From the IMG/VR virus record IMGVR_UViG_3300014073_000001: a stretch of DNA of 30,403 nucleotides; one strand, given 5' to 3'. Positions 1 to 30,403 of the stretch are shown here, one piece after another; the first letter of the stretch is position 1, and every line of letters starts with the position of its first letter. A program made the position numbers and the translations under genes. The notes beneath the pieces were generated by a model that worked only from the letters and a program-made list of their open reading frames with translations, ran no database searches and had not been told where the DNA came from. This stretch comes from an uncultured virus (IMG/VR IMGVR_UViG_3300014073_000001). Taxonomy: Duplodnaviria > Heunggongvirae > Uroviricota > Caudoviricetes.

Positions 1-1736
1 AATTCAGTATAAGTTCCAAGCAGCAGCTCATCAGCAAATACTTGGAGGGTGGCGCCGACCGGCATGGTCTTACTCAGGGCTAACAGAGTATCGACCGCAA
101 GAGCAGGATCGAGGTCCGGAGAGAATACAGGATAAGTGGTGGTGACTGCAATCTCTACGGTTTCGCCTACATCGCGGATAACGTCGCCGGTAAAGGCCAT
201 CTCGGTGCCGGCGATTGCAGCGTCGAGCGCTGCACGGCGGTCAACGATTTTGATCGCTTCGGTATGGCTTGCAAGTACGTAACGCGAGGAAATTACTTCG
301 AACTCGTCAGACTTGGCGGCGACTGCTTTTACGGTGAGGTCATATTGACCAGGGGTAATGTCGCTGATTACCAGAGACCATTCTTCATTGCCGGAATGTG
401 CATTAAGCACGGTGCGTGCAATGCTGAAGGCTTTGGATACGAAGAACTCTTTCACTCCGGCTTCAGCTATTACGTAAGTTCCTATGGTAGTGTTGGCATT
501 TTTCAGCTCGATTAAGGTGCCGATCGGCAAAGCTTTATCGAAGCTTACCATGGAGTCAAGCAGTGTATCAGTGCCGATAGCAGCATCGAACACAGGATAG
601 GAAACTGATACGGTAGCGGTGATGTCTTCTTCCTTGTCGGCCACTGCAGGAGCAACAGTCACAGAAATCGAAGTCCCGGCGATCGCATTTTGCAATGCGG
701 CTTCCAGGGGGGAGACATATTCGTCGCCGGCATTAGGAACGCTTACGGCTACATTGTTTACCACCGTAAGCTCAGTACCTGCGGCATTCATTTCATAAGT
801 AGCATAGTACCAATTCTCGCCAACTTTGAGTGCTATTACGAACCTGCCGCCCTGAACATAATTGCTTCCAACGACCAGATTGGTTTGGCCAGGAGTCAAA
901 GTGGATTTAATGCTGTCAGGCTGGTCAGCAGGATAGTTGGCAATACCGGTTTGAACTGCACGGTATCCTTCAGGATAGAACAGATAAGCTTCAGACGCAT
1001 CACCGATGCACACCGAATCTTTGAATACTATCGAGAACGGAGCATTACCGCCTACATTTTTAACCCGGGCTACATTCAATATGTTCTCACGAGCATTGTA
1101 AATGGTGATAAGCTTGAAAGATGCGTACTGGTTGCCAGCTGCGGAATAGTAGCGTGTCATAAGTGCCGGCTGTTCCACTGGCAAGCTCAGGATTGCTGCA
1201 TTAACAACCTGACGAAGAGATTCGAGTTCAGCATACTGCGCCCGGATCTCATCAATCTCAGCATTGCTTAATTGAGCCAGCATGTTTTCGTATTCGAACA
1301 GCGCTGTTTCGATAGTCACAACCTTGACAGAGACTTCGGCAGTGCCAATTACAGTGTCACCTTCTTTGATCTCAACATGAATTGTGTATTCGCCTTCTTC
1401 CGCTTCGTCGGAAATTACGGGGTTGACCTCGGTCACTGCACGAAATCCGACTGGCTGAATAAATCCTTCAGGCGGCCCCCATTGGAAGGTAGAATAGGGT
1501 CCGGCCATTTCGTACGGGCCATCATCCGGCGCGTCATCATTTTGAGACGTCATTTTTAGAGAGTTAAATACCTGGTCGAAGTTAACCGGCACGCCGGCTT
1601 TGCTTAACGATAGGAGGGTTTTTAATACACCAGCGTCTTGCTGGAGCACGTTCTCCACGAGAACTTGTTTGGCTTGATTACCGGTTACTGCAATCAGCTC
1701 TTGATTCAGTACCGTAATGCGCATGATATCAGACAT
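1..1736 (-). CDS. Large acidic beta-rich protein with a ~156-aa internal repeat (Ig-like domains likely); 3' end runs off the window
   Basis: Not in the ORF track. Manual translation from ATG 1736 (GGAGAGG RBS upstream) gives MSDIMRITVLNQELIAVTG... with no stop down to base 1 (578 codons). AALQNAIAGT...YPVF...LPIGT...GTY recurs as AALDAAIAGT...YPVF...MPVGA...GTY 468 nt later. Confidence 0.9.
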   Translation of the reverse strand, partial: MSDIMRITVLNQELIAVTGNQAKQVLVENVLQQDAGVLKTLLSLSKAGVPVNFDQVFNSLKMTSQNDDAPDDGPYEMAGPYSTFQWGPPEGFIQPVGFRAVTEVNPVISDEAEEGEYTIHVEIKEGDTVIGTAEVSVKVVTIETALFEYENMLAQLSNAEIDEIRAQYAELESLRQVVNAAILSLPVEQPALMTRYYSAAGNQYASFKLITIYNARENILNVARVKNVGGNAPFSIVFKDSVCIGDASEAYLFYPEGYRAVQTGIANYPADQPDSIKSTLTPGQTNLVVGSNYVQGGRFVIALKVGENWYYATYEMNAAGTELTVVNNVAVSVPNAGDEYVSPLEAALQNAIAGTSISVTVAPAVADKEEDITATVSVSYPVFDAAIGTDTLLDSMVSFDKALPIGTLIELKNANTTIGTYVIAEAGVKEFFVSKAFSIARTVLNAHSGNEEWSLVISDITPGQYDLTVKAVAAKSDEFEVISSRYVLASHTEAIKIVDRRAALDAAIAGTEMAFTGDVIRDVGETVEIAVTTTYPVFSPDLDPALAVDTLLALSKTMPVGATLQVFADELLLGTYTE

Positions 1737-1784
1737 TAAATACACGTCCTCTCCATTGTAATGAATAGGAATTCGATTTGGCTT

Positions 1785-1816
1785 AAAAGGGATGCAATAA
1801 TGTATTACATCCCTTT
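1785..1816 (-). terminator. Probable intrinsic terminator after the 964-aa gene
   Basis: Minus strand reads AAAGGGATGTAATA-CAT-TATTGCATCCCTTTT, a 14-bp stem with one G-U pair and a short T run, about 10 nt after the stop. Confidence 0.65.
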
Positions 1817-1826
1817 CTACCCTTTA

Positions 1827-4721
1827 TCAAGTGGCAACAGGGTCGCCTTTTGCATAAATCTTAAATACTTTTCTTTGGATGGACTGTACATCGATCTCAG
1901 ATTCAATCCGCACATAGAACGGCTTTACTTCGCTATTTGCCATTGTATTGGTCAACGAAATAGTTTCTACGGGAACAAACGGGCTGAGAGTTTCGCTCAG
2001 CATCAGTTTAACTTTCTCTTCTTGGGTTTCGTTATCAGCCCAAATTGAGACATCTTCCAAAGTAAGTCCGGTGCGGTTCTCCAGGAATACGATGCGCGGT
2101 TCGGCGAACAAGCCGCCGATAACGGTGCCGAAGTCAAGCTGCTGGAGAATATCGCCTTTGTCGGTACTATAGTAGAAGTTGTTCTCGTCTTTGAACAAGA
2201 GGCTTCTGTATCCACCAAGGACATGGAATTTAATCTCGGCTTTCGTGTTGAGTTCATCAACTGCCTCGATTGTGATTTCGTTAGGTAATCCATAGAGTAG
2301 GTCTTTTGAATCCCAGCTGAAGTCAAATGTGAACCCGGCCTCTTTCCAGTCGGTGTAGCCATCCAGAGGAGTAATCTGATTGCTGTTAACCAGTATACGG
2401 AAGCGTACTTTCTTGCTAAGCGAATGATTGATCGTAGCATTCATATAGAACTCGTTCTGGAAATTCAGTTCAATTTGCGGTTCACCGGTAATAAGAATAA
2501 TCTGAAATTCCTTCTCATAGATTACGCCGCGGCTGTCGCGGGTAATAACCTTGATAGTGTTATCGCCGGCACGGAAACTAGTAAAGTCATATTCATGGTA
2601 GAACTGATAACCGTTTTTCCGTTTGAACCAGCCAGGCTGCTCAGGGGTAATTTGCCTCCATCCAATTTCATTGAACTGCTTGGTAACGACTTGGTATTCA
2701 ACCGCGTCATTTTCGGCATCGAATAATGTCCCGATGAGAGCAATTCTGTCGGTAAGAACTTGAACCTGGCCATCCTGTACAAGTGGCCCCTGGTTGGGCA
2801 TGAACTCGATATCGAGTTTGCCGATCTTGTGAGTGGAATTAAAAGATTCGTTCCGTATACCGACGGCATATTTAATTTTGGAACGGTAATCAGACGGCAA
2901 GCTGTCCCAAATTTTTTCGTCAGCCATTTGGTTAATCGTGATACCGTTATCACTGATGCTGCGAAGTTCGGTTTCTACCCAACTTCTTGTATCCGGACTA
3001 TAAGTAAGCCATTTACCACCGTTGTTAACAGACATGAGGTAACGTGATTTGCCTTCACCCTTGGTGTCAACTTTAATAGCCCGGTCCGTTTTCGTGATGG
3101 TTTTATAAATTTCGTACACAGCATTACCTTCAATATTGTTGCGTTCTAATTTGCGGTCAGTCGTTACGATAATGTCCTTCGTATTAGCAACAGTATTGCG
3201 TCCGGTTAGTTTTTCAGGATCAACAGGCTTTTCAGCTTCGCTTACGATATTGATGTCAACACCGGTAACGGTTGCTTCATCGGAAGAATCAATCTCGATG
3301 CTTCTACCAGTATCAAGTAGAGAAGTAAAAGTGCTTGCAGACTCACTCGATTTGCCAACAAAGTTGACTGTGATGCCACGCTCAAGAATAGTTGACTCTT
3401 GCTCGTCGTCAACGATAATCAGAGTGGACTTACCATTGATCTGGTTAGGTCTACCAATCAAAGCTTTCGGATCGACGGTTGCCTCCGTTTGAGACACGAT
3501 ATCTACGCCCATCGCATCATTATCTTCCCTGTCTTCTTGCTCGATGTTAAGCCCCCTGTTAACAGGGTTGAAGTCTCCATCAAGTGGAAGCGGATCTTCA
3601 ACAAACGATTGAACGTATAAGGATTTGTTAGTGCGAAGTACGTCAAATATTAGCTGAGTCTTAATTTTAGTGTTAGCACCTTGCGCTCCACTTTCAACTA
3701 CGTTAACAATATCGACAGAGCCATAGACTTCAAGTTCTTTGAACTTCGCAATAGGGATACCTTCTAAATCTTTCATGCCCTGTTCCCAGAATGTGGCACG
3801 ATCGGGCCTGGCGTCACTAACATATTGCCATGATTCGGTGGTAGTATTATATATATAATACTGACCGTTCAGGACAATCATTGCGCGGCCAAGATCTTCA
3901 AACCAAAGCTTAGGTGCATTGTTGTCAAGAAATTTCCAAACAGGTACATTGTTGCGGTATCTATACAGCCAAGCATCAAACTTCAGCTTGTTCTGGGTCT
4001 CTGTAGTGGTAAGGCCGATTGCAAGATCATTCTTTTGCATCGTCTTCTCTTTGTCATAGAAACAGCCCTGAACATCGATGTTTTCACAATAACCATAGAT
4101 CGGGCCTGCGGTTAACAAGTTGCCGCCAGTGATGTTACCGTTATAGAAACAGTTGTAAACCTTATTCTTATTGGTAGCAAATGGCGACGTAACGTACCCG
4201 GCGATGCCGCCAGCGAAGTCCTCCTCGATCACGATATTCGTCGAAGAACGGCTATCTTGAATAAGCGTCACATTTAGCTGATTGATATCGCCGACTAAAC
4301 CGCCTGCTATATTTTTGGCCTTTATAGAACCGGTCGAATAGCAGCGAGCGATACTTGCGCTATTGGCAAAAAAACGTCCAGCTATTGCCCCTACCTTCTC
4401 ATTGCCAGTTATATCAACATTGACCACTCCAAGATCTTTAACGGCACCACTTAAGTTCGCGATTAGCCCTAGAATTGATATGGTAGGACTGTTAATCTTA
4501 AGATATTTGATGACATAACCGTCGCCATCTAATTGCCCCGTAAGATTCGGAATGGGTGTCCACCCCGCACTGTTGTACGGGGCGACATCCAAGTTAATAT
4601 TATTCTTCAATTTAAAGTAGCCGGCTGGCTTAGTACGGATAGCGTCTAAGTCGGCAGCGTCTTCAATGATATAAGGATCGTTACTGACGCCAGTGCCGCC
4701 GCCAAAAGTTCCGTCTGCCAT
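1827..4721 (-). CDS. 964-aa multidomain hub protein: N-terminal GLUG-motif beta-helix, linker repeats, two Ig-like domains, C-terminal LDFGT...N domain
   Basis: Starts MADGTFGGGTGVSNDPYIIEDAADL and has VGAIAG/AGGLVG/AGGIAG motifs. The C-terminal ~400 aa align by eye with the 666-aa protein (PNQGP vs PNSGP; YYSTDKGDILQQLDFGT vs FYSTDLGEIIQKLDFGT; AKGDPV vs AKADPA). GAGGAGG RBS. Confidence 0.85.
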   Translation of the reverse strand: MADGTFGGGTGVSNDPYIIEDAADLDAIRTKPAGYFKLKNNINLDVAPYNSAGWTPIPNLTGQLDGDGYVIKYLKINSPTISILGLIANLSGAVKDLGVVNVDITGNEKVGAIAGRFFANSASIARCYSTGSIKAKNIAGGLVGDINQLNVTLIQDSRSSTNIVIEEDFAGGIAGYVTSPFATNKNKVYNCFYNGNITGGNLLTAGPIYGYCENIDVQGCFYDKEKTMQKNDLAIGLTTTETQNKLKFDAWLYRYRNNVPVWKFLDNNAPKLWFEDLGRAMIVLNGQYYIYNTTTESWQYVSDARPDRATFWEQGMKDLEGIPIAKFKELEVYGSVDIVNVVESGAQGANTKIKTQLIFDVLRTNKSLYVQSFVEDPLPLDGDFNPVNRGLNIEQEDREDNDAMGVDIVSQTEATVDPKALIGRPNQINGKSTLIIVDDEQESTILERGITVNFVGKSSESASTFTSLLDTGRSIEIDSSDEATVTGVDINIVSEAEKPVDPEKLTGRNTVANTKDIIVTTDRKLERNNIEGNAVYEIYKTITKTDRAIKVDTKGEGKSRYLMSVNNGGKWLTYSPDTRSWVETELRSISDNGITINQMADEKIWDSLPSDYRSKIKYAVGIRNESFNSTHKIGKLDIEFMPNQGPLVQDGQVQVLTDRIALIGTLFDAENDAVEYQVVTKQFNEIGWRQITPEQPGWFKRKNGYQFYHEYDFTSFRAGDNTIKVITRDSRGVIYEKEFQIILITGEPQIELNFQNEFYMNATINHSLSKKVRFRILVNSNQITPLDGYTDWKEAGFTFDFSWDSKDLLYGLPNEITIEAVDELNTKAEIKFHVLGGYRSLLFKDENNFYYSTDKGDILQQLDFGTVIGGLFAEPRIVFLENRTGLTLEDVSIWADNETQEEKVKLMLSETLSPFVPVETISLTNTMANSEVKPFYVRIESEIDVQSIQRKVFKIYAKGDPVAT

Positions 4722-4742
4722 GTTAGTTCCTCCTCTACTTCA

Positions 4743-5894
4743 TTATTGAAGAATACGAATTCTGTTGATGGAATCTCCGAACTGACTAAAATCAATCGTG
4801 GTTTTTAGCACTACCGCATCAGAAATCTGAGCATCGACAACCATATCTTTCTTAACGGAGGTACGGTTGATAACGAATTTGTCAGTGCTCGCTACCAACT
4901 CGAACTTGCCGAACTCGCGCAACTCATTCCACTTGAAACGAGGGATCATAGCGAGCTCATTATCAGAGATGCCGTGCTGGTCAAATACATTGGCACTCGG
5001 AAAGGTCACGGAAACGTCGATCCACGTTTGATTGCGGTATGTTTTATAGCCGTTGTTGACGAAGATGAAATACTTTGTCGCTTCGGTATAAAACAAACGA
5101 GGATATACGCCGGTACGAAGTACCCATAGTTTCTTTTCGAAGTTGTAGTATTGGTCGGTCCATTTGTCGAAAGTGGCCGGAGTTTCCATTTCGGCTTTCG
5201 TCTTAGAGCCGACACCGGTTAACGGATTTTTGGTGCTATCGAAATAGCTCTCGGTTACGGTGCCAGCAGTTACCGTGCCTACGACACCGCTACGGCCAGT
5301 ACCGCCACCGGTGATAGTTCCGCCGTAGAAGCAGTTTTTAATCACGCCATACGTGTTATTCAGTACGGAAGTGATGCCGCCGATGTTATTACCGGTACAG
5401 GTGATATCGACTTCGGAATAGCTGTTGATGATTCTGCCGCCATCCATACGGCCTGCAAGACCACCGATATCACCAGTCGCAAGAATCTTGCCGACCGCAA
5501 GGCAGTTTTCAATCAAGCATTCCTGAGTAGTCATCTGTCCAACGATACCTGCACAATAGGAAGTGCCGCCAACGATGTTGAAGCTGAATACGCCCAGGTT
5601 AGTAATGGCGCCACCGCGAGTGCTAGTGAACAAAGCCTGGTTATTCGCAATCCGGTTGATGAACAAGTTACGTACTACATAGCCATTACCGTCAAAATTA
5701 CCGCGGAACGCAGGGATCGGAGTCCAACCAGTGCCGTCGCTAGACTCGTTGCAGACTTGGGTCAAGTCGACATTTTTAATCAATTTGTAAGAGGCGGTGA
5801 GATTGTTTCGGACAAAGTTAAGATCATATCCGTCTTCGATTAGATACGGATTGTTGATAGAGCCGTCTCCGCCTGCGAATTTACCGTTAGCCAT
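4743..5894 (-). CDS. GLUG-motif beta-helix adhesin-like protein, 383 aa (tandem paralog)
   Basis: Starts MANGKFAGGDGSINNPYLIEDGYDL, has FRGNFDGNGY and IGGLAG/IGGITS motifs, and the shared C-terminal module. Its start overlaps the upstream stop (TAATG). Confidence 0.85.
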   Translation of the reverse strand: MANGKFAGGDGSINNPYLIEDGYDLNFVRNNLTASYKLIKNVDLTQVCNESSDGTGWTPIPAFRGNFDGNGYVVRNLFINRIANNQALFTSTRGGAITNLGVFSFNIVGGTSYCAGIVGQMTTQECLIENCLAVGKILATGDIGGLAGRMDGGRIINSYSEVDITCTGNNIGGITSVLNNTYGVIKNCFYGGTITGGGTGRSGVVGTVTAGTVTESYFDSTKNPLTGVGSKTKAEMETPATFDKWTDQYYNFEKKLWVLRTGVYPRLFYTEATKYFIFVNNGYKTYRNQTWIDVSVTFPSANVFDQHGISDNELAMIPRFKWNELREFGKFELVASTDKFVINRTSVKKDMVVDAQISDAVVLKTTIDFSQFGDSINRIRILQ

Positions 5895-7174
5895 TAAGCA
5901 ACAACTCCTTTATTCATGGTTACAATGTTATTACCAAAATCAGTGAACTTGATTTCTTTACGGAAGTAGTTTTTGTCTGCTGCCGAATTTGCTCCATCTA
6001 ATGTCATCGGAAAACTGACTGATTGCTGTGTCGTACCATTGGAAAGCTCAACTATGTTGATGATGTCAACCTTGGTGTTCGTTGCTCTGAGCACGTCCCA
6101 GGCGGTGTACGGAATATGAGAAATGCTCTTCATTCCGTTGTTAACAGCTTGAGCTCTTGTCGGCATGGTCGTATATTTAATTACCCACGATCCATTCTCA
6201 TAAACACAGTATCCGTCGTTAGTTCGTACAAAATATCTGTCTAAAAAGAATTGGCGGGGTAAAGGATAACGGGTTCCTTCTTCGTAATCCCAAATCTGAG
6301 AACCGTCACTCGTTAGGCGCAGATCCATATCGGAGAACCGGGTTTTAGTCATATTGTCTGTAGAGATGCCGGTAGTCCCAGGAGTGGCTGCCGTTAGCCA
6401 GCGAGTATTATCATAAAACAGATTGGAATATCCAGCGGCAAAGTATGCTACTCCACTAAAGGTGCCGAAAGACGTGGGATTTAATGAAGCATTTGCCAGG
6501 CCGTTGATCATATTGCTGAATGAGCAGGCGCTTATGACATAATTAAGGATAAAGTTCTTCGTTGCGCTGTTATATATAGTCCCGGCCACGGCGCCAAAAG
6601 CGGAGCTTACAGCAGAAGGCTGAAGGAAGACATCGATAAAGATGTCCTGGCCAAGACTAAATAACATTGCTTGAGAAGCAGCATCCCAGGTCATGTATCC
6701 GAAAATTCCGCCGCCATTTCCCTCTGCGGTAACTTTGCCGGAAAAATAGCAACGATCTACAATGTAATATGCAGGTGCTCCGCCAGCAGTTTGGTATATT
6801 ACAAGACCTCCGGCAAGAACCCCAACATTGGTTTTGCCAACGATATTGGCATTTTCGATGCAGAGATTACTTATCCGCTGCGGGTAATTGTCGATAACTT
6901 TAATATTCTCAAACAAACCGACACCGCTTTTGTCTGGGCGATTAATGAAGAGGTTGTAGATCTTTTTACCATTGCCGTCCAGTGTGCCAGCGAAGTCTTT
7001 TATGGGATTCCAACCCTTTCCAGTATTGTACGGTGCAGTACCAAGGTTGATACTGTATGCTAACTTAAAGTTAGAGTTAGGGAAATATCGAATTGCAAAA
7101 AGGTCTTCTGCATCTTCGATTAAGTACGGATTGTCTGGAATACCAGTGCCGCCGCCGAATTTTCCTTGTGCCAC
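5894..7174 (-). CDS. GLUG-motif beta-helix adhesin-like protein, 426 aa (tandem paralog)
   Basis: GTG start after AGGTGG. FGGGTGIPDNPYLIEDAEDL, LDGNGKKIYNLFINRP, VGVLAG, C-terminal FRKEIKF. Confidence 0.85.
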   Translation of the reverse strand: MAQGKFGGGTGIPDNPYLIEDAEDLFAIRYFPNSNFKLAYSINLGTAPYNTGKGWNPIKDFAGTLDGNGKKIYNLFINRPDKSGVGLFENIKVIDNYPQRISNLCIENANIVGKTNVGVLAGGLVIYQTAGGAPAYYIVDRCYFSGKVTAEGNGGGIFGYMTWDAASQAMLFSLGQDIFIDVFLQPSAVSSAFGAVAGTIYNSATKNFILNYVISACSFSNMINGLANASLNPTSFGTFSGVAYFAAGYSNLFYDNTRWLTAATPGTTGISTDNMTKTRFSDMDLRLTSDGSQIWDYEEGTRYPLPRQFFLDRYFVRTNDGYCVYENGSWVIKYTTMPTRAQAVNNGMKSISHIPYTAWDVLRATNTKVDIINIVELSNGTTQQSVSFPMTLDGANSAADKNYFRKEIKFTDFGNNIVTMNKGVVA

Positions 7175-7194
7175 GTTAGACCACCTGTCCTTTA

Positions 7195-8484
7195 CTAAAT
7201 ATTGATGATAGATAAGTTACCGCCCGATGCGGAGAACACGATCTCTTTGCGGAAGATTGTTTTGCTACTATTACTATTAGCAGCATCTTTGGCAAAATTA
7301 AACGGTGTTCCAAAAATACTAAATGTATCCGCCTTATCAATAATATTTACGATATACGGTTCATTATGGTTCTTGAAGAAATCCCATGCAGTTTGCGGGA
7401 TTTGTTCAAGATGCCGCATCCCTTTTTCAATTGCTTGCTGACGGCTAGGAATCGTATCGTTAACCATAGTCCAGCCAGTGGACGCCTTATACGTGTAGTG
7501 GCCGCCATCGCCACAGATATACAGATAGTCAGGTGATTGATGATATAGCTCAGGAGATTTGTCCGTAGGGAAATACCATTCAGGAGCATCATTGAATATT
7601 GCAGTCGGCAAAACAGCAGGAAACCTCGAAAGATCTTTCATTTCTTCAGAAGTTAAGCCAACTACGGAATTGGCATTAACGGCTACATTAGAAATAGTCC
7701 AAAGTGTTTTATCATATCGACAGCTATTTGCATACAAATTTTGCCCCTGGCGATGAAAGCATATCGGACCAACATTTGTCGGCGAAGCTACAATAGATGT
7801 ATCAATTTTGCCTTTACCAATACAGTTCGATAAAATGAAGATATTGTATTGGGCTGCCCAATAATCTTGCACATTTCCAAACATTTGGCCGTACATCGAT
7901 CCGCCCGTTAATGGGACGATTGTCACGTCTGCAACACAATCTCCGGCTACAAATGTCGTATAAGTATAGTTGGTGGCACCCCAGTAGTATTGTCCGCAAA
8001 AACCGCCTACGACAGATCGTCCACTCACTTTGCCCTGCACTGAACAACGAAGGAAGACGGCGTAGTCTGCGGAACTGGGATCACCGCGTAATTGACCGAT
8101 AGAATATGCGCCAAGTAATGCACCGACATAATCACGTCCGGTAACATCAACATTTTCTAGGCATAAATCATAGATTCTAACCTTTGTCATTTGGTCAAAA
8201 CTTGTCATATTGAAAGTCCTGAATATGCCGACATAATCTTCATCCGGACGGTTGATGTAAAGATTGTAAATCTTTTTACCGTTGCCATTAAAATTGCCGG
8301 CAAAGTTATCGATCGGTACCCAGCCTTTGTTCGCATTGTATGGCGCCACACCGAGATTGATATTCGAAACAAGTTTGTAATAAGCTGTTAAGTTGTTTCG
8401 AACCTGATGCAAGTCAGCTGCATCTTCTATGAGGAAAGGGGAGATAGCAGTGCCTGCCCCGCCCCCGAATTGACCTCCAGCCAT
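7195..8484 (-). CDS. GLUG-motif beta-helix adhesin-like protein, 429 aa (tandem paralog)
   Basis: FGGGAGTAISPFLIEDAADL, FNGNGKKIYNLYINRP, VGALLG/VGGFCG, C-terminal FRKEIVF. GAGGTG RBS. Confidence 0.85.
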   Translation of the reverse strand: MAGGQFGGGAGTAISPFLIEDAADLHQVRNNLTAYYKLVSNINLGVAPYNANKGWVPIDNFAGNFNGNGKKIYNLYINRPDEDYVGIFRTFNMTSFDQMTKVRIYDLCLENVDVTGRDYVGALLGAYSIGQLRGDPSSADYAVFLRCSVQGKVSGRSVVGGFCGQYYWGATNYTYTTFVAGDCVADVTIVPLTGGSMYGQMFGNVQDYWAAQYNIFILSNCIGKGKIDTSIVASPTNVGPICFHRQGQNLYANSCRYDKTLWTISNVAVNANSVVGLTSEEMKDLSRFPAVLPTAIFNDAPEWYFPTDKSPELYHQSPDYLYICGDGGHYTYKASTGWTMVNDTIPSRQQAIEKGMRHLEQIPQTAWDFFKNHNEPYIVNIIDKADTFSIFGTPFNFAKDAANSNSSKTIFRKEIVFSASGGNLSIINI

Positions 8485-8508
8485 AAATGACTCACCTCTT
8501 TCTTGTTA

Positions 8509-11138: not shown

Positions 11139-11155
11139 TATGCTCGCCTCCTTCG

Positions 11156-21510: not shown

Positions 21511-21514
21511 TATT

Positions 21515-21835
21515 TTAAATCACCTCAACTTTTTCTATAGTTTTTATCATAAATGAGGTAAGCAGCGAGACAAACATTTGCCCAGTCCCGATTTGCCCAA
21601 GATCAGTCATGTCGGCAGTTATTGAAGACTGCATGCAAATCGCACCATTTAATAAGATAGAGCTATCAATTCCGTTAAACTTACTTGCTTCTGTTTCATC
21701 AAAATTAAGCAAAGTCTTTTTTACATTGCTTTGTCCGGCATCATAATCAATATTGGCCTTAATCCCTACCTGGCTATGATTATTATAGACATGAGTAGGA
21801 GTCACTTTAGTAAAGGTTATATTTATTTCAGACAT
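21515..21835 (-). CDS. 106-aa protein, apparently chimeric (first strands of the Ig adaptor plus an unrelated C-terminus)
   Basis: GAGGAG RBS. NITFTKVTPTHVY matches NITIKKVTPTHIY (404 aa) and IKVTPTHVY (363 aa). Ends KTIEKVEVI. Confidence 0.75.
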   Translation of the reverse strand: MSEINITFTKVTPTHVYNNHSQVGIKANIDYDAGQSNVKKTLLNFDETEASKFNGIDSSILLNGAICMQSSITADMTDLGQIGTGQMFVSLLTSFMIKTIEKVEVI

Positions 21836-21867
21836 AATATCATCTCCTCAAACAAAGGAATTAGGTA

Positions 21868-23082: not shown

Positions 23083-23134
23083 TTGTTCATCTCCTTTAGG
23101 TCATATATGAATGGCATAAATCTGGTTTAGCGAT

Positions 23135-24319
23135 TTAACTGATTCGAATATTGCAAATGAATTTATCCAGATTAACGACAAGCTCTTCGTCTACAATGTC
23201 GTATTTGCTTCGAAATTTGTTTTTTACTTTACTGTCTAAATCATTTGCATAAATATTGTTTTGAATAAAGCCGCCAGAAATTGAGCAAAAGAATCGTTCA
23301 GACGCTATTCTATATAACTCTTCCTTTTTTACGATTATAGATACAGTTTGATTATCATCAGATCTGATTGTTAGTGTATTGTTACCAACATTAAAGTGGC
23401 TATTATTAATTGCTCGGGATGTCTCGGCGCTCATGTCTGACACCATGGTTCCATTAACTTCTATACTAAAACTATGCTCGATTTTTCCGCCGAAACCATC
23501 GTCTTGCAAAGCCTGTACAGAGATTATACAGCTAGTATGTTGTCCGTCATAAAGAACTAATGGAGTTACCTGGCTAATGTTTACATTAGAAAAAGGGATG
23601 TCAATGTGACTTATATAGCTATTCTGATCTTCTGTGTCATATACATCAATTTTTATAGTATTTAAACCTTGTAGCAAACTGTCTCTTTTGACAATATAAG
23701 TAGCGGTATATGGCACCGCAACCAATTCGCTCCATCCTGTAGCGGCTGGATATTGAAATCCATTTAAGTTCATTTTATATTGCACCCAATTGCTATCCCG
23801 ATCAGTAATATTTATAATGACTTTAAATTCATCTTTACTGATTTGGACACAATCAATTGCTGCGATTGGCAGAATGTTTGTAATAGCTCCTCTTACATAC
23901 CAATAACCATCAGTATGTCTTCCGTCATTAGGATACGTTCCATCTTCAGCTACAAGGTTTTCTAGTACCAATGTCCCTTTAGAATAAATTAAATCTGATG
24001 TCGCTCTCATCGCTGAGAAATAGGCAGAAGCAAAAACACCACCATAACCGGTGCTTGTGTATTTTAAAAGATATCGAGTTATGGTATTATTGCTTGAAAC
24101 ATAGTAGTATTTACCAGATTCTATCTTGCCAGCAGATGATTGTACGCCAGCATAGTATTGTGCGCCAGCATTTGCGAATATTCCGGTGGATGCATTTAGG
24201 CTGTAGGACGAATATAGAACATAGTATTGATTGTTTGTAGTGAAATCAGAAAGCGTTTCGAAATCTCCTACTACATATGAAGCGATAGCATTATATTTGC
24301 TATAGTAATATTTGGACAT
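23135..24319 (-). CDS. ~394-aa paralog of the 404-aa protein
   Basis: KYYYSKY...YSKG...AEDGTYPNDGRHTDGYWYV. Start moved to ATG 24319 because GAGGTG precedes it. Confidence 0.8.
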   Translation of the reverse strand: MSKYYYSKYNAIASYVVGDFETLSDFTTNNQYYVLYSSYSLNASTGIFANAGAQYYAGVQSSAGKIESGKYYYVSSNNTITRYLLKYTSTGYGGVFASAYFSAMRATSDLIYSKGTLVLENLVAEDGTYPNDGRHTDGYWYVRGAITNILPIAAIDCVQISKDEFKVIINITDRDSNWVQYKMNLNGFQYPAATGWSELVAVPYTATYIVKRDSLLQGLNTIKIDVYDTEDQNSYISHIDIPFSNVNISQVTPLVLYDGQHTSCIISVQALQDDGFGGKIEHSFSIEVNGTMVSDMSAETSRAINNSHFNVGNNTLTIRSDDNQTVSIIVKKEELYRIASERFFCSISGGFIQNNIYANDLDSKVKNKFRSKYDIVDEELVVNLDKFICNIRIS

Positions 24320-24348
24320 CAATTTCACCTCTTATTTAATGCAACTAT

Positions 24349-24397
24349 AAAGGCATCCACGAATTCTTTTTAATAGAAATAGAGGAAGGATGCCTTT
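24349..24397 (-). terminator. Possible terminator or stabilising hairpin after the 666-aa gene
   Basis: AAAGGCATCC / GGATGCCTTT inverted repeat with a 29-nt partly paired loop and a weak T tail. Confidence 0.4.
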
Positions 24398-24411
24398 TAT
24401 GTTACAAAATT

Positions 24412-26412
24412 TTAAGCTGGATCTGCCTTGGCAGAAATGTCAAAATCGCCGCCACCGTAACTGGCTTTAGTAGTACGAATTCTTACAAATATAGATTTCT
24501 TTTCATTCTGCATTAACGTACCTACGGTGATGTTATTAGTTGGAGTAAACGGATTTTCATTGACAGATAATTCAGCATAGACATTTGTAGGTAATTCAGG
24601 AGATGTTAAGATAGTAAGATTTTTAAGATCAAATCCACACTTATTAACAACATATACTTCTTTCGGCACTGATATTTGTCCAGCAATCAAAGTTCCGAAA
24701 TCAAGTTTTTGAATTATTTCTCCTAAATCGGTTGAATAAAAATCACCTGTAAGATTCGTAAACAATATGCCATAATAGGCTCCTACGAATTGTTCCTCTG
24801 TAAATCCTAATTCTTGAAACTCGTCTCTAAATTCAACCCGAAGTGTATTGATTATTCCGAAGTTAATTTCTCTTTTATCTATTTCGTATATGATAGTTGC
24901 AGGAGACTGATTTAAATTAGTCCATGAAACCTTTTCTATGCCATTAAATAAAATTCTATACTGAACATTATCATTGTCCGGGTCTTCAACAACCGCACGA
25001 TAAATGTTTCCGGACAACACACCAGTTATAATTGGAGCGATATTCGTTCTTGTAATAAAAACTGTATTCTCAGTTTTCAGTCCTCGTGCATCAGTCGCTT
25101 CAATTCTTACAGCATTTAATCCGATAACAAATAAATTACTTGGAATCGCAATATTAACATACCCATCTGCCGGAACGCCCCTGACCCCTTGGTATTCTGC
25201 TCCATTGAAGAACGTTTCGTATGTTATATCGTCTTCTTCTGGGTCATAAATTTTACAAGAAACAATGACATCTTCTTTATGCATATTATCGGGGGTAGCT
25301 GCAACATTTATGATATTCGGCCCGGAGTTAGGAGGAAGCGATACCACGAAAGAGGTTAAGCTTTCTCCTGTAAAGTCATAGTTTAGTGCGTTGTAACCGC
25401 TTGGGACATTGTTTACAAAAGCAGTGTCGCCAAAATTAAATGTTGCCGTTGCTGTAGCTCCACTAGCACCATTATTAATAGAAGGATATAGTGTTTGAGT
25501 ATATCCGGAATACAAAACTCCTAAGTTTACATTGTTTTTATAAACTTCGATTTTTTTACTGTCAGCATCTATTGCAAACCCAAGAATGTCGCCTGCTATA
25601 AGATTTGTGGTAAATGTAGAAACAGCGCCGTTTATATATTTTTGATTCAAAGTATAAGCGTAATATACACCGTTTGTTGAAGCGTAATTTATGGCTGCCT
25701 CTGAAGCAAGTCCCATCAGCAAACTTCCTGATTGATAGGTAGTTTCAAAATACCATTTCCCGGTTGCTGGTATTGGTTTGTTGCCCTTACTAATAGAATT
25801 CGTTCCATTTGCAAGAAGAGCTGTAAGATTATTATCACTCAAAGTGCAGTTAACTGATTTAACTGGATCTAAAGAGTTAAAACCAGGCCTTATTTGAGCA
25901 CTCTTTAAATAACACATGATGTCTAATTGTGTACGCAAAAACACTTGAGCCCAATCAGCGGGCTGAAGCGATTGAATGGCTTCTTTAGACATGCCTTGTG
26001 CCTCAATATCGCCCGGCGAGATAGCCTGCCATGTTCCATTAACTCTACTTTTCCAGCTTTCACCACTGTCAAAACTAACTGCAAATTTTCCGCCTACACC
26101 GTTAATGCTGATACCATTAATGCCAGAATAACCATGGAGATCAATAGCTGTGATCGGAGTCGTTTGAACAATGCCATAGTCAACAGGTGTAATATCGACA
26201 ACTGGCGTCACTCCGGCATCAGTATGAATTAAGAGTTTGCCGTTCGCGAGTGAAGCATAGTCCTCGTTATTCAGTAACGTCAACTCTGTATCAGTGAATC
26301 CTTGATTAAAATTTTGAGATTCTATCTGTACAAGTTCACCAGAGGCATTAGCTGTAAAGTAAAGCAGATTTCCCAATGAAGGTTCAGTTGTAATTAAATA
26401 TTTGTTTGCCAT
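24412..26412 (-). CDS. 666-aa hub protein with SPRY domain, two Ig-like domains and C-terminal LDFGT...N domain
   Basis: TLSDNNLT...GKWYFE...GDILGFAIDADSKKIEVYKN...LYPSI...FNFGDTAF...PSGY (~25383-25869) is a SPRY/B30.2-like signature. The C-terminal half parallels the 964-aa protein. Confidence 0.85.
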   Translation of the reverse strand: MANKYLITTEPSLGNLLYFTANASGELVQIESQNFNQGFTDTELTLLNNEDYASLANGKLLIHTDAGVTPVVDITPVDYGIVQTTPITAIDLHGYSGINGISINGVGGKFAVSFDSGESWKSRVNGTWQAISPGDIEAQGMSKEAIQSLQPADWAQVFLRTQLDIMCYLKSAQIRPGFNSLDPVKSVNCTLSDNNLTALLANGTNSISKGNKPIPATGKWYFETTYQSGSLLMGLASEAAINYASTNGVYYAYTLNQKYINGAVSTFTTNLIAGDILGFAIDADSKKIEVYKNNVNLGVLYSGYTQTLYPSINNGASGATATATFNFGDTAFVNNVPSGYNALNYDFTGESLTSFVVSLPPNSGPNIINVAATPDNMHKEDVIVSCKIYDPEEDDITYETFFNGAEYQGVRGVPADGYVNIAIPSNLFVIGLNAVRIEATDARGLKTENTVFITRTNIAPIITGVLSGNIYRAVVEDPDNDNVQYRILFNGIEKVSWTNLNQSPATIIYEIDKREINFGIINTLRVEFRDEFQELGFTEEQFVGAYYGILFTNLTGDFYSTDLGEIIQKLDFGTLIAGQISVPKEVYVVNKCGFDLKNLTILTSPELPTNVYAELSVNENPFTPTNNITVGTLMQNEKKSIFVRIRTTKASYGGGDFDISAKADPA

Positions 26413-26437
26413 ATTTTCACCTCATTACATATTGGTA

Positions 26438-27034
26438 CTAACAGATAAATAACCATTCAATTTCTTTAGCTTCATTAGGATTTAAAACTAAGTCGAATTC
26501 TTTAATAACCTCACCGTCAACAATAGCCATTAACTTGCCGACAATTTCTTTGTTCGCTACCATTCTGATCATAAAACGCATCGTGTCGTCCAGGGGAAGC
26601 GCAAAGATAATTTTGTTGAAGAACTCATTGTCGCTTATTTTGAAATTGTGCTTATAACCGAATAAAAAACCATCAATGACGCTGTAAGACTGATTGGTAT
26701 TGAGATTATGTTCAACATAAGCAGATTTGAAATTAATAACATCCTGGTAAGGGCTTTCTTGACTTGTTAAATTGATAATCGTGTCATCGTCTTTCCAAAT
26801 CAAGAATTCGACTTTCTTTCCGCAAATATCAAAGATCCCGTTTGAAGCATTTAGACTAAGCTTTGCGCCGCGCCCTAATATGCCGAATTCCTTGATTCGG
26901 GTTTTATCTATATCGTGAAATTTATTCTCTATACCACTATCCTCAAACTCGGTAATCATTTGCTTGTTCCCGTAATCGGCGAACCAAATGAAAGGCTGAT
27001 CCGCACCTCTCGGTGATAAAAGTCTATCAATCAT
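26438..27034 (-). CDS. ~198-aa conserved hypothetical protein, paralog of 11849..12502
   Basis: AGGAGG RBS before ATG 27034. Motifs shared with the 217-aa protein along the whole length, including the terminal WL. Confidence 0.8.
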   Translation of the reverse strand: MIDRLLSPRGADQPFIWFADYGNKQMITEFEDSGIENKFHDIDKTRIKEFGILGRGAKLSLNASNGIFDICGKKVEFLIWKDDDTIINLTSQESPYQDVINFKSAYVEHNLNTNQSYSVIDGFLFGYKHNFKISDNEFFNKIIFALPLDDTMRFMIRMVANKEIVGKLMAIVDGEVIKEFDLVLNPNEAKEIEWLFIC

Positions 27035-27066
27035 ACAAGCTCCTCCTTTTTCAACGATCATTAATT

Positions 27067-27088
27067 TATTACCTATGAATTCGTCTTA
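27067..27088 (-). promoter_or_regulatory. Promoter-like motif TAAG-N12-GTAATA upstream of the 198-aa gene
   Basis: Minus strand TTAATTAAGACGAATTCATAGGTAATA, immediately after a terminator. Confidence 0.6.
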
Positions 27089-27097
27089 ATTAAGTCC

Positions 27098-27137
27098 AAA
27101 AAGAAAAGCAGCACCTAAGATTTCTCTAGGTGCTGCT
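27098..27137 (-). terminator. Intrinsic terminator after the 363-aa gene
   Basis: Perfect 11-bp stem AGCAGCACCTA / TAGGTGCTGCT followed on the minus strand by TTTCTTTTT. Confidence 0.8.
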
Positions 27138-27164
27138 GTATTGGAGCAGATTAATCGACGAACT

Positions 27165-28256
27165 TTAAATCTCTACTTTATTAGTATATCTATCTAACTC
27201 GACTCCAAATACTCTCCCTGAAGAGGAAGATAGGTAGGGCTGCTGCTTGTACTTCGAACGTATCTTAGCAGATTCGACGAATGAGATGTTCTCTTGTGTA
27301 TAACCACCATCTAATGATATAAATGTTCTTTTTACGCTTGTTCGTTGATAAGCTTCTTTAAAGATTTGCACTGAAAAGGAACCACTTAATACGCCTGCTG
27401 CTAACCTAATAGTAACAGTATTATCTCCAGAGGCTAAATCATTATAATCCACGCTCAAACAAACATTTTGATCTGTAATAGGTACACCTATTTGTTTTTC
27501 ATCCCCGTTTATAGATAAAGTAGCTTGTACATTACTTAAAGCGTCAAAGTCTTCGATAAGCGCTGTTATCTTTACTGGAGATGTATTCGTATACACATGA
27601 GTAGGTGTCACTTTTATTGGCGTAGCGTAGATGCTAGGTTCTGTTACTATTAAAATTGGCCTGAAGCCAGTGGAAGCTACTGATAAAGCAGAAGTTACAC
27701 CATATGAAAATCCAGATATCCCGCTATACCCTCTTACTACACGGTTAGAAGCATCATAACTAGTAGACGTCCATGACCAAGCACCTGAAGGGAACCATGT
27801 ATTTGTATCTCCTGCTGTTATTGTGCCACCCAAATTAGACTCTACTATAATTTTAGTCCATTCATTGTCTACATCAGTAGAATTGATACCGCCAGTTACT
27901 AATCTAATCACATATTCATCAGATTTACCGTCTATAGTAGTAGGAACACCTGATCCACTCGCTACGCCAGCTGTATTCAATGTATCCCATGATATCCCGC
28001 ATTGAATATTTCTGTCGGCTATAAATTTTTTATTTCCAAGTCTATCGTATCCTACTAGTATAAATTTAAAATATCCATTTGGTGTTTGAGATGGTGACGA
28101 TGGTAATGTTAATCCAGTTACACTTCCATCTGAATAGCCTACACCTAATTCTTTAAATATCCCATATGTATTTGCTGTTAAAGCAGTATATTTACACCAT
28201 ACATAATCTCCTGCTGTGACTGCTTGCCAAACAGAAGGTTTGCATACTAATGCCAT
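27165..28256 (-). CDS. 363-aa protein: C-type-lectin-like (GFRP) head, Ig-like domain and shared tail
   Basis: IADRNIQCGISWDTLN...IRLVTGG...NEW...WSWT...RVVRG...GFRPIL, then KVTPTHVY...KEAYQRTSVKRTFISLDGGY. Confidence 0.78.
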   Translation of the reverse strand: MALVCKPSVWQAVTAGDYVWCKYTALTANTYGIFKELGVGYSDGSVTGLTLPSSPSQTPNGYFKFILVGYDRLGNKKFIADRNIQCGISWDTLNTAGVASGSGVPTTIDGKSDEYVIRLVTGGINSTDVDNEWTKIIVESNLGGTITAGDTNTWFPSGAWSWTSTSYDASNRVVRGYSGISGFSYGVTSALSVASTGFRPILIVTEPSIYATPIKVTPTHVYTNTSPVKITALIEDFDALSNVQATLSINGDEKQIGVPITDQNVCLSVDYNDLASGDNTVTIRLAAGVLSGSFSVQIFKEAYQRTSVKRTFISLDGGYTQENISFVESAKIRSKYKQQPYLSSSSGRVFGVELDRYTNKVEI

Positions 28257-28297
28257 ACTATTTGACCCCCTTAATACCTATTATATTAAAGTTAATA

Positions 28298-29968
28298 TTA
28301 ATACCATAAATTGTTCTGTTTTTTATTATCGACATATTCTATCACCGGTCTAAATCCAACATATTGATTACCTGCCCAAGTTGCACCATTGAATAAATCA
28401 TCATCCGCCGCTCCCCTTTCAACTCTTGATGAGTTAGACCCTAAAAGTCCATCTGGCCTCTTCAATCCATTAGCTGGGGTTTCTCTACACCATGAATAAT
28501 ACGATCTATTCCATATCGTATTATCGCCAGGAACTATCTTTCCATTTAAATTAGAGTGCATTACATATTTATCCCATTCATTACTAGGAGGCCATGCCCC
28601 TAAAGGCCAGCCATTTGAAAACTGAATGGATGATTTTGAACCTCCATCGCTCCCTATATATGAATTACCTCCAGAAAGAGAACGAATTATCATATCTTTA
28701 TTTAAAAATAATATAGATGAGGTACCATTATTGTATAAATTTAATGTATAATATTCAAATTCTATAGTTGCGTTTGTTGTTGATTTTGTTGCATAAACTT
28801 GTTGGAACACAGGACCTCCCCAATTAGAGCCGATATAAGCTATTGAGCCATAATATATTAATTGCCTATCTATGTGTATAACAAGTTCTCCGGTTTCTTT
28901 ATTACCATATATCTGAATATCCTTATTTATAAGATCTCCGTTATATACTATTATTGAACCATTTGAAATAGAATTTCTTGAGATAGACATACCTATTATA
29001 TTATTCGTAGTAGTAGTATTATGATGCAAATATAATCCTAAACTGGCCATTGTAATTTGTTTGAATTTAAATTTTAAATAAAATGATGATACGTTATTAT
29101 TTATATTAATAGATCTATTCCATTGCCCAGTTCCAGCACTTGAACTTCTTCCAGTTACCTGTAGGCTAGAACTAGAAACCAGAGTAAAATTACTAGTATA
29201 ATTATTAGATGATAATAGGCCAGAATTACTTCCTGAATAATAGGTATCATTGCTGCCATATCTACCTTCTATATATTTAGCAGCATTTATTGCATTCCAC
29301 GATATAGTCGATTGTATCATTCTATCGGCTATTAATAATCCTTTATCTGCTTTAATGAAATAAAATAAACCATTAGGAGTCACAGAACCTAATACTGGTA
29401 TTTCGTTAGAAATGCCAGTTCCCAGTTGACTGAAATAACCAATAGCTCTACTAGTTCCCGCAGTATATCTACATGGAATACAATCCCCTATTTCCATATC
29501 ATCTATAGAAGTTTTTTGTGCTAATATGGGATGCAACAAATAGCCAGTACTGTCTATGTCTATAGCATCTAGAGTTAATAATGCTCCGCCATTTAATTCA
29601 TTACACACTATTTCTACCTTATGCTCATTTAATGCTAAACCAAGAATCTCGTAATGGAGTATAATTTTATTTTGAGTTCCGTATGTAGTATATGTTCCAG
29701 AAAGCACACCATCAACATATACTTCTAAAAAAATAGTCGAAGATCTGTCTTCTGTATATCTATCGGATAATATTCTAAATTTAGTACCATAAAACTTAAA
29801 TATAATTTTTCCAATAGTATCGACTTGAATATAGCTCATTGTAGAATTATAATATCCAGTGCCTATTTTACTAATGCCAATTCCATCATATTTTATTCTA
29901 CTATCTTGATCATCATATCTTCTCCATCCGGATTCGGGCGCTGTTAATGCCTGCCCTATAGTCGCCAT
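28298..29968 (-). CDS. 556-aa protein: N-terminal beta-sandwich plus C-type-lectin-like (GFRP) domain with a ~190-aa inserted domain
   Basis: MATIGQALTAPESGWRRYDD...FYGTKFRI...LDAIDID; IADRMIQSTISWNAIN...[insert]...IRSLSGG...NEW...YSWC...RVERG...GFRPVI. Very AT-rich. Confidence 0.8.
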   Translation of the reverse strand: MATIGQALTAPESGWRRYDDQDSRIKYDGIGISKIGTGYYNSTMSYIQVDTIGKIIFKFYGTKFRILSDRYTEDRSSTIFLEVYVDGVLSGTYTTYGTQNKIILHYEILGLALNEHKVEIVCNELNGGALLTLDAIDIDSTGYLLHPILAQKTSIDDMEIGDCIPCRYTAGTSRAIGYFSQLGTGISNEIPVLGSVTPNGLFYFIKADKGLLIADRMIQSTISWNAINAAKYIEGRYGSNDTYYSGSNSGLLSSNNYTSNFTLVSSSSLQVTGRSSSAGTGQWNRSININNNVSSFYLKFKFKQITMASLGLYLHHNTTTTNNIIGMSISRNSISNGSIIVYNGDLINKDIQIYGNKETGELVIHIDRQLIYYGSIAYIGSNWGGPVFQQVYATKSTTNATIEFEYYTLNLYNNGTSSILFLNKDMIIRSLSGGNSYIGSDGGSKSSIQFSNGWPLGAWPPSNEWDKYVMHSNLNGKIVPGDNTIWNRSYYSWCRETPANGLKRPDGLLGSNSSRVERGAADDDLFNGATWAGNQYVGFRPVIEYVDNKKQNNLWY

Positions 29969-30036
29969 ATTTACATCTCCTATTAATTAGTAGATAAAGA
30001 CCATTCCACTCTCCTTAGCTACAATAGTCATTAATA

Positions 30037-30059
30037 TATTACTGCCAAAAGCAAGCTTA
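30037..30059 (-). promoter_or_regulatory. Promoter-like motif TAAG-N13-GTAATA upstream of the 556-aa gene
   Basis: Minus strand ATAAGCTTGCTTTTGGCAGTAATATA, immediately after a terminator. Confidence 0.6.
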
Positions 30060-30072
30060 TTAAGATTCAAAT

Positions 30073-30104
30073 AAAAAACAGCATCGAGAAAGATGCTGTT
30101 TTTT
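30073..30104 (-). terminator. Intrinsic terminator (symmetrical, possibly bidirectional)
   Basis: AAAAAACAGCATC-GAGAAA-GATGCTGTTTTTT directly after the stop codon. Confidence 0.8.
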
Positions 30105-30403
30105 TATGCGTGGTTAGCCGTCGCATATAATTTTAATGCGTTTTTACCAATCGCCTGTTCTTGATCCGCTCGCGCTTTAATGTATATCGTATATGTATCG
30201 CCATTCCCTAATATTACCGGTAGTGTAATTGAAATACGCTTATCAAACCCTTCCTTTGTTAAGCTTAATTCGATTACAGTATCTTCATTGGGATCACTAC
30301 TAATAACTATATCTTTCAGAAGCATACCTGTTGTATTTTTTATAATAACGGGTTTTACCTCTGAACTCTGTCTTATCAAAAAGCTGCCTAAATCCAATGC
30401 TTT
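30104..30403 (-). CDS. 3' end of a gene extending beyond the window; third copy of the LD(F/L)G...N C-terminal domain
   Basis: The frame is open to the window edge (KALDLGSFLIRQSSEVKPVIIKN...ELS...F...IYIK...LYATA) and parallels the ends of the 964- and 666-aa proteins. Confidence 0.8.
   Translation of the reverse strand, partial: KALDLGSFLIRQSSEVKPVIIKNTTGMLLKDIVISSDPNEDTVIELSLTKEGFDKRISITLPVILGNGDTYTIYIKARADQEQAIGKNALKLYATANHA

Follow-up and report, generated by a model that had tools for sequence, protein, structure and literature searches.

The 30,403-nt stretch of DNA analyzed here (the window; record IMGVR_UViG_3300014073_000001 of an uncultured virus) raises the question of what a single run of 24 co-oriented genes may build. 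The original prediction, made from the sequence, proposed a branched multi-adhesin fiber built in the cytoplasm from a small subunit, hubs, and exchangeable tips, belonging either to a giant phage or to a spore appendage. The outline of this fiber was supported by our analysis, but the gene g10, its probable backbone, had gone unseen as such. We found that the window holds two copies of a conserved gene cassette, which is real, probably phage-borne in the window, and undescribed as far as the literature was searched; its families are already catalogued in PHROGs without a function. On balance, we favor a model in which a thread protein (family E) strings plain beads (family B) and adhesin-bearing beads (family HUB).

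The genes, 22 whole and two cut by the window ends, tile the minus strand from g01 (30104-30403) to g24 (3-1745), with intergenic gaps of -1 to 182 bp. The core families were named A (g14), B (g15), C (g16 and g04), HUB (g01, g05, and g23), and E (g10). Their conserved order is A-B-C-tips-HUB-E, with 153, 151, and 217 amino acids (aa) for A, B, and C, respectively, and this order was the same in the six phage regions opened (G, SP-15, Jenst, Sundance, Perkons, and LC76P1). Neighborhoods were counted on 94 fetched loci, a redundant set with 68 distinct B sequences. Where at least 2.5 kb of downstream sequence was available (49 distinct B sequences), C lay within 2 kb of B in 46. Among the 44 with at least 9.5 kb downstream, HUB was present in 33, E or its CBM96 domain in 36, and both in 33; HUB preceded E, or shared an open reading frame with it, in all 33 loci having both. 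In several of the loci lacking HUB or E, tip genes continued right up to the locus end.

The proposed thread, g10 (17821-19653), combines a CBM96/DNRLRE domain with four strand repeats and a tandem array of 23 more, and its C-terminal motif is aromatic and conserved. Altogether 27 motifs of the type hydrophobic-x-Gly-x-hydrophobic-x-hydrophobic were counted, the 23 tandem ones at an alternating spacing of 14 and 15 residues. Motif spacings of 12-16 residues occurred 24 times in g10, at most twice in 200 shuffles, and never in the other 23 genes. This strict array had been absent from the original prediction. Relatives of E retain both the strand arrays and the aromatic C-terminal motif.

The proposed bead, g15 (12532-12987; phrog_11814; gp361 of phage G), was modeled as an immunoglobulin (Ig)-like sandwich with a predicted local distance difference test score (pLDDT) of 76.5. 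Its fold matches were pilins, PapD/ASH domains, TLP-1b, and TasA, all weak (Z-score 5.4-6.9). Alignments to PapD-type chains ended at around residues 90-97 (92 in 9fx8_C, 97 in YadV), which we take to fall before the G strand of the chaperone. The motif of the first strand was matched by pattern in 96 of 126 relatives, and in 94 of these 96 it lay no more than nine residues from the start. At the other end, B mostly finishes in a strand of the Y-x-Y-x type, pilin-like and aromatic. With its first strand right at the start and an aromatic one at the end, B seems to need a donor strand and to be unable to supply one; judged from the model, the fold seems to lack both the final strand G and a donor extension. 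This bears on the proposal that B polymerizes by itself in the manner of TasA into a long filament, for instance the outer coil of phage G, with E only nucleating or capping it. The TasA fiber (Z-score 5.7, root-mean-square deviation (rmsd) 3.7, 129 residues aligned), TLP-1b (6.7, 3.4, and 130), and archaeal bundling pili (5.6, 4.1, and 121) are indeed among the fold matches, and the protein of the outer coil is left unidentified in the part of PMC8570332 that was available. The same part describes the coil as unseen in other phages, whereas the cassette occurs in ten, and the position of the first strand in the 94 relatives leaves no spare donor strand. We therefore regard self-polymerization of B as very improbable.

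Three copies of B (g15) were then predicted in complex with residues 501-610 of g10, in three runs and with three controls. The complex scored 0.70, compared to 0.02 for the best control. Of 157 solved complexes, 116 passed the mark applied, as did 2 of 215 mismatched pairs, rates that are only rough for the present pair. The best run places one E repeat in each of two B copies, with g10 residues 506-512 and 522-525 among the best-placed pairs. The repeats are predicted to run antiparallel to residues 140-146 of B and to pack against residues 3-8 and 17-27; the glycine of the repeat is placed at F142 of each copy and, in one copy, also at W20. One E repeat would thus be inserted into the groove of each of two B copies, a geometry that we take to be that of donor-strand complementation in pili.

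Several points weigh against this interpretation. All fold matches of B stay below a Z-score of 8, and a Foldseek search with the B model gave nothing at an E-value of 0.001 or below, its top rows being FimA and CfaB at 0.006-0.02. The three runs scored 0.70, 0.40, and 0.75 and share at least 4% of contacts, the partner reached a pLDDT of only 37-50, its fold being uncertain, and only two of the three B copies were placed. The pair is unlike the calibration set, the modeled B and E stem from different cassettes of the window, and the passing score may owe something to likeness with solved pilin donor-strand complexes. In many E relatives the median repeat spacing is 12-13 residues, which is tight for one Ig domain each. 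Furthermore, the Atlas model of g10 (predicted template-modeling score 0.39, pLDDT 0.57) has solenoid-type neighbors, no phage hallmark gene was matched in the window by the library scans, and no report of the phage G counterparts (gp360-364 and gp366-367) in particles was found in the accessible parts of the sources.

The repeat spacing and the solenoid-type neighbors are also what an alternative would predict, in which the cassette encodes a phage fiber whose shaft is E folding alone, as a two-sided beta-solenoid or an oligomeric, curli-like beta-shaft, while B and C serve as few-copy adaptors or chaperones. The alternating 14/15 spacing amounts to a 29-residue unit that suits two strands per coil, and the best neighbor of the g10 Atlas model, a DUF342/FapA protein, reached a template-modeling score of 0.49 by query. 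That score is below 0.5, however, and the model is of low confidence. In the control with an unrelated protein, the E segment scored 0.00 with a pLDDT of 30, whereas with B two repeats took the same register, and B itself has no evident donor strand. A shaft made of E alone is consequently considered unlikely.

HUB proteins extend the thread-and-bead model. Their end domain aligned with B over 42 columns (hhalign probability 65, E-value 5.9e-5), and an iterated HUB profile reached g15 at 5e-12. Given this weak homology, judged from profiles, hubs could be beads that carry heads. The C protein g16 (11849-12502; phrog_11178; gp362 of phage G) was modeled with a pLDDT of 86.0 as an all-beta fold with a long hairpin, unlike PapD-type chaperones, and is a candidate chaperone, cap, or platform. 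Its best fold match was a lyase supersandwich (Z-score 9.8, rmsd 3.0, 137 aligned); a function derived from the supersandwich matches, with Z-scores of up to 9.8, was rejected, since these do not stand clear of each other. Foldseek gave nothing for the C model at an E-value of 0.001 or below, and a sequence search of solved structures found nothing for B or C.

The favored model has the fiber form in the cytoplasm through donor-strand complementation in trans, with E as a long chain of beta-strand repeats, each of which would complete the unfinished Ig fold of one bead, either a plain B subunit or the B-like end domain of a HUB protein. The HUB proteins would carry Ig stalks, connectors, and sugar-binding-type heads, and free tip proteins would dock through the shared connector and C-terminal modules. 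As an extended repeat of 14.5 residues is estimated to span approximately one Ig domain, the array suggests that E sets the length; the fiber length would then follow from the number of repeats, with an estimated ~110 nm for an extended array of 23. Attachment to the particle would be provided by A and the coiled-coil genes, and release by lysis. We infer this ruler role of E, as well as the roles of A and C, tip docking, and host binding. A very long E relative in SP-15 (L002:27747-40459), with more than 4,200 aa, ~78 strand motifs, and two CBM96 domains, follows three HUB genes and would offer a natural test of the ruler idea.

Library searches agreed with some of the domain labels of the original prediction. 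Pfam and NCBIfam matches were limited to SPRY in g05 (E-value 3e-6), CBM96/DNRLRE in g10 (9e-17 and 8e-15), Big_4 in g11, and a weak M26 N-terminal match in g23, so that the SPRY and DNRLRE/CBM96-like labels were confirmed. The six heads named GLUG are true paralogues (26-36% identity) and all match phrog_21223; because the Pfam GLUG model gave no score at an E-value of 0.1 or below, the name itself derives from the motif alone. The labels "lectin-like," "beta-helix," and "Tyr-rich" were confirmed by no library. Recurring modules were evident, with connector, Ig, and C-terminal modules common to several genes. PHROGs matched 19 of the 24 proteins, mostly with families of no assigned function. 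As noted before, none of the 24 proteins matched a family for the sheath, tube, baseplate J, capsid, or lysis; g12 gave a weak tape-measure match (E-value 0.0025, 75 residues), and g11 a "minor head protein" match in PHROGs (9e-10) over its apparent coiled coil. The PHROGs annotation "Regulator of chromosome condensation" is taken to be a head-domain label, because the match covers Ig and end domains. Neither a signal peptide nor a lipobox or transmembrane segment was found in the 24 proteins by a hydropathy and motif heuristic (used in place of SignalP), in line with the claim that export signals and anchors are missing. The highest 19-residue hydropathy mean was 1.46 and the highest N-terminal 11-residue mean 1.55, and g19 holds one LPxTA-like string without a hydrophobic tail. 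No usher family was found in the Pfam and NCBIfam scans, and no Ena or sporulation-appendage family scored in the general library scans, whose coverage of Ena models was unchecked.

What kind of genome carries the window was approached through its relatives. C and the HUB end domain matched an identical set of 15 among 50,697 phage records, corresponding to ten Bacillota phages of 118-498 kb (G, SP-15, Jenst, SecTim467, Sundance, Perkons, LC76P1, LIS04, EZ-2018a, and c-st); B matched 13 of these records and missed c-st. The cassette PHROGs are 11814, 11178, 16766, 11333, and 11315. According to the available part of PMC12484599, phrog_11333 often adjoins phrog_16766, i.e., the PHROGs of E and HUB co-locate. 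In the sheath-bearing SP-15 (as SP15_059-064), Jenst, Sundance, and Perkons, the cassette comes directly after genes for the baseplate or tail; Jenst, Sundance, and Perkons, like two phage-like plasmids, have lysis genes downstream of it. By position, the relatives thus behave as a virion fiber module, flanked by baseplate and lysis genes or embedded among other genes for the virion. Jenst and Sundance are described as siphoviruses (PMC4909266, in part), and the cassette occurs with both contractile and non-contractile tails. It also stands at the tail-fiber position of sipho- and myoviruses of 118-222 kb. In phage G, the cassette corresponds to gp360-367, far from the tail genes gp178-190 (positions from the accessible part of PMC12484599); gp360-362, gp364, and gp366 are listed there as hypothetical, and gp365, which matches no window gene, is named in particles. 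The sequenced phage blocks hold zero to seven genes between C and E (six phages), whereas the window has two cassettes and at least ten free tip genes.

The order g13-A-B-C-g17-GLUG tips recurs on L006, the 318-kb contig L085, and L090/L091 (175-179 kb); L072 has almost the same order. Upstream of these loci lie gyrase, ClpX, RecJ, sigma factor, and tail-collar genes or a DNA polymerase; Moose phage W30-1 shares the order of gyrase, ClpX, RecJ, and the sigma factor (supplement 5 of PMC12484599, as far as available). The g16 protein recurs unchanged on a contig of at most 153,765 bp; contigs of up to 126-252 kb, and no long chromosomes, carry the close relatives of B and C. The three Atlas clusters shown for B were 82-100% viral among members with a record, and the genome collection gave only three distant B loci (36-48%) with a close-relative alignment. 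With g16 as the sole query, no close locus was found in viral contigs. The gene order shared with jumbo-like contigs, together with the g16 relatives on large contigs, points to a large, probably a jumbo, phage, and the window is probably its expanded fiber (adhesion) region, the host being a member of the Bacillota. Of the two origins considered originally, the phage is therefore much better supported for the window; the restriction to giant phages did not stand.

Family C was also present in 59 of 401 genomes from the family of Paenibacillus aceti and in 2 of 401 from the phylum of genome G004. Tail-gene matches lay within 20 kb upstream in 18 of the 20 chromosomal copies fetched (of 59), and none in the other two. 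A contiguous tail-less junction was then found in 12 of 93 genomes of the genus to which these two copies belong. A stand-alone chromosomal form of the 151-aa and 217-aa families, for which a neighborhood survey had been proposed, does therefore exist, in one bacterial clade. Here degV is followed by genes of 192, 906 (polymerase-like), and 252 aa, then by A, B, C, the tips, HUB, and E, and finally by mtnA/mtnK and suf, as seen in the eight genomes opened first and in parts of four more (L153/L163/L164, L155/L165, L166-L170, L174, L175, and L194-L202). The polymerase family PF05183 scored for one tail-less copy and a distant relative and not for two others scanned; the aspartate triad was invariant in the five sequences aligned. 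The motif itself (L153:14989-17709) reads D-x-D-S-D in the domesticated copies and D-x-D-G-D in the distant relative.

Among the tail-less copies, the mean ratio of nonsynonymous to synonymous substitution rates (dN/dS) was 0.084 for the polymerase and for B, 0.12 for C, 0.18 for A, 0.20 for E, and 0.31 for HUB, compared to 0.03-0.05 for the flanking housekeeping genes. The 190-aa gene after C was split in two of the 12 copies, and B was short in one. The tips were ~30-90% alike and the core 82-99%. The minor tail protein of relatives had no match in three of five tail-less genomes and only partial matches elsewhere in two, and the tail-less form yielded no lysis gene. From these sequences, the tail-less cassette is read as a fiber kept for its own sake under purifying selection; its release by lysis of the mother cell at sporulation is a guess. 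Two allele classes of B (L163:455-997 and orthologues), ~82% and 98-99% identical to the reference, differ at a synonymous rate (dS) of ~1.0, far above that of the neighboring genes, which suggests allele exchange. Asparagine-synthetase-like, HPr-kinase-like, nucleotidyltransferase, and ABC genes (L153:2378-9424) immediately precede the domesticated site and form what we presume to be a lasso-peptide cluster.

Between the phages and this form stand head-less elements. In G264 (L171/L183-L185), G148 (L172/L186), and G385 (L173/L187/L188), an additional ~17 kb at this site encodes tube-like, tape-measure, Dit, and minor tail proteins. In all three, the chromosome adjoins on the upstream side and no space is left for head genes; for G264 and G385, both flanks were seen. 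G374 (L156/L189/L190), G339, and G256 look head-less at other sites (the remaining loci being L160/L191 and L161/L192), and G374 has MrpR- and DndB-like genes upstream and a holin downstream. With their polymerase, tube-like gene, tape measure, tail tip, and cassette, these elements are candidate non-contractile tailocins. We presume that F-type tailocins, the late region of SPbeta-type phages, and YonO-like polymerases are their closest named counterparts; the head-less elements retain a PF05183 polymerase, a tube-like gene, a tape measure, Dit, and the cassette. The tail-less form differs in keeping only its own RNA polymerase of phage type, two small genes, and the fiber cassette. We consider it possible, at somewhat less than an even chance, that a template-built filament of pilin-like beads, of a class undescribed in the literature searched, whose one template protein would supply all donor strands and thereby fix its length and how many display sites it has, passed from phage to head-less tail to tail-less cassette and became a domesticated adhesin appendage, released by lysis and possibly at sporulation.

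The tail-less copies also give some weight to the view that the window is no phage at all, instead being a domesticated chromosomal or plasmid locus for a spore or cell appendage, like the copies in relatives of Paenibacillus aceti: 12 of the 93 genomes surveyed from one genus have them, at a dN/dS of 0.08-0.31, and the window shows no hallmark gene. On the other hand, g11 has no RNA polymerase gene in front of it, the closest gene order is found next to jumbo-phage-type neighbors, the closest B and C relatives lie on the contigs of up to 126-252 kb instead of long chromosomes, and the genome collection yielded only the three distant B loci. We judge a domesticated origin of the window to be improbable.

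The window itself falls into two blocks. For g01-g10 the guanine-plus-cytosine (GC) content at third codon positions is 0.20-0.41, compared to 0.40-0.55 for g11-g24, a step that the original prediction did not mention, and a hairpin with a T-run, read by eye, follows the stop codon of g10. Related contigs, mapped on positions 1-19900 and mostly 90-99% alike, came from three runs (at most two samples, two studies; two of the runs are soil metagenomes). They diverge past 17742, exactly at the block boundary, in two runs, and past 8904, which is residue 312 of g19 and its head/tail boundary, in all three. The GC step, the hairpin, and the divergence at 17639-17820 mark the join of two cassettes with different histories, and given both divergence points, cassette blocks and tip heads appear to be exchanged in nature. 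The three runs gave no coverage of 17929-19900, which by itself proves nothing. A contig joint at 4618-9758 was set aside as a rearrangement, since it probably reflects paralogous gene starts. DNA repeats in the window were limited to paralogous gene starts and short pairs, with no hint of an inversion or retroelement system. Scans of 14000-30403 for promoters (72 vs. 59.7 +/- 8.9) and terminators (13 vs. 9.8 +/- 3.1) were near chance. Duplication of the whole cassette was also seen in L013, L030, and L041.

The low-GC cassette 1 starts with g01, the cut 3' end of a HUB gene with its B-like terminal domain. It is followed by g02 (28298-29968), a tip or adaptor of 556 aa with a module common to g03 and to genes of phage Sundance, and by g03 (27165-28256), a 363-aa tip with the shared C-terminal module, after which a terminator-like hairpin lies at 27137-27107. 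The C gene g04 (26438-27061; phrog_11178) is a 29% paralogue of g16, and the HUB g05 (24412-26412) combines a connector, the SPRY head, two Ig domains, and the terminal B-like domain. The tip g06 (23135-24328) has a head, Ig domains, and the shared C-terminal module, g07 (21868-23082) is its 36% paralogue and likewise a tip, g08 (21515-21835) is a 106-aa module without a head related to g03, and the tip g09 (19750-21510) comprises a head, a connector, an Ig domain, and the shared C-terminal module.

Cassette 2, of higher GC, begins with g11 (15806-17638), 610 aa with an apparent coiled coil and the Big_4 Ig domain, a possible stalk. Next come g12 (15091-15765), 224 aa with a C-terminal domain common to g13 and a virion protein of Jenst, and g13 (13508-15022), 504 aa with an apparent coiled coil, which stands before A in the closest relatives. 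The A gene g14 (13005-13466; phrog_11315/34854), often the C-terminal domain of a longer gene, is the proposed link to the virion. Downstream of B and C, the 226-aa adaptor g17 (11156-11836) stands after C in the closest relatives as well. It precedes the GLUG-like tips g18 (9837-11138), g19 (8509-9837), g20 (7195-8484), g21 (5894-7174), and g22 (4743-5894). All but g19 were recorded with a connector; in g19 the related contigs diverge towards the head and match its tail. The HUB g23 (1827-4721) has a GLUG-like head, two connectors, two Ig domains, and the terminal B-like domain. The cut gene g24 occupies the place of E in relatives; in the 581 residues seen it has no strand-repeat motif, and it matched no library family and nothing in the phage collection.

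Among known systems, chaperone-usher pili (FimA, CfaB, and PapD-type chaperones) share the Ig-like subunit. We further take the predicted E strand, antiparallel to the last strand of B and with its glycine over an aromatic residue, to resemble a pilus donor strand. In contrast to these pili, the window genes have no signal peptides, no usher, and no donor extension on the subunit, and the tandem donor strands would come from a separate protein. TasA, archaeal bundling pili, and TLP-1 fibrils resemble the cassette by the weak fold match and by donor-strand exchange. In TLP-1, TasA, CS17, and CupE each protomer donates its own strand (PMC11494351, in the part available). The TasA/TLP-1 type is an open-ended homopolymer with its own N-terminal donor strand, whereas B has no such strand and the length would be set by a template; nor is B a secreted subunit with an N-terminal donor strand of its own, as TasA and AbpA are. 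Branched phage receptor-binding systems and trimeric fibers of the T4 and CBA120/G7C type presumably share the position after the baseplate and the exchangeable heads on conserved anchors. A, B, C, HUB, and E nevertheless match no solved or named tail-fiber protein by sequence or, for B and C, by fold. The full-length match to a characterized tail or baseplate module that would have refuted the original prediction was not found: tail genes flank many relatives, yet no core gene matches a characterized protein of this kind. The cassette, as modeled, works like a donor-strand pilus without belonging to the pili, and holds a tail-fiber position without a match to known fibers.

No description of the cassette or its tail-less form was found in the literature covered, which does not include most subscription papers, and the parts available of PMC13626063, PMC9406221, PMC4909266, and PMC7824862 do not describe the cassette. 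The genes of the helical fibers of phage G are left open in the part of PMC8570332 consulted. If the model holds, it would provide structure and function for five conserved function-less families of large Bacillota phages, including phage G. It would also establish template-measured donor-strand polymerization, with a fiber ruler akin to the tape measure of tails, and connect the adhesion devices of phages with pilin folds. In culturable bacteria, the chromosomal copies without tail genes would allow a direct test and may represent a phage fiber turning into a host appendage, and a thread with countable docking sites would be an attractive scaffold for protein display.

Further observations concern single relatives. 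An orphan B gene (L012:10001-10492) lies beside transposase-like genes in the chromosome of Paenibacillus aceti, in whose genome C was not found. On L072, a second, divergent B paralogue (2035-2481) stands upstream of the main cassette with no C beside it. A contig that gives the impression of being archaeal-virus-like (L070:6009-10804) has a B relative after a tape-measure-like gene, and the preceding 128-aa protein looks, by eye, like a free HUB end domain. In the Perkons cassette (L017:23515-24591), an annotated reverse transcriptase lies directly before HUB.

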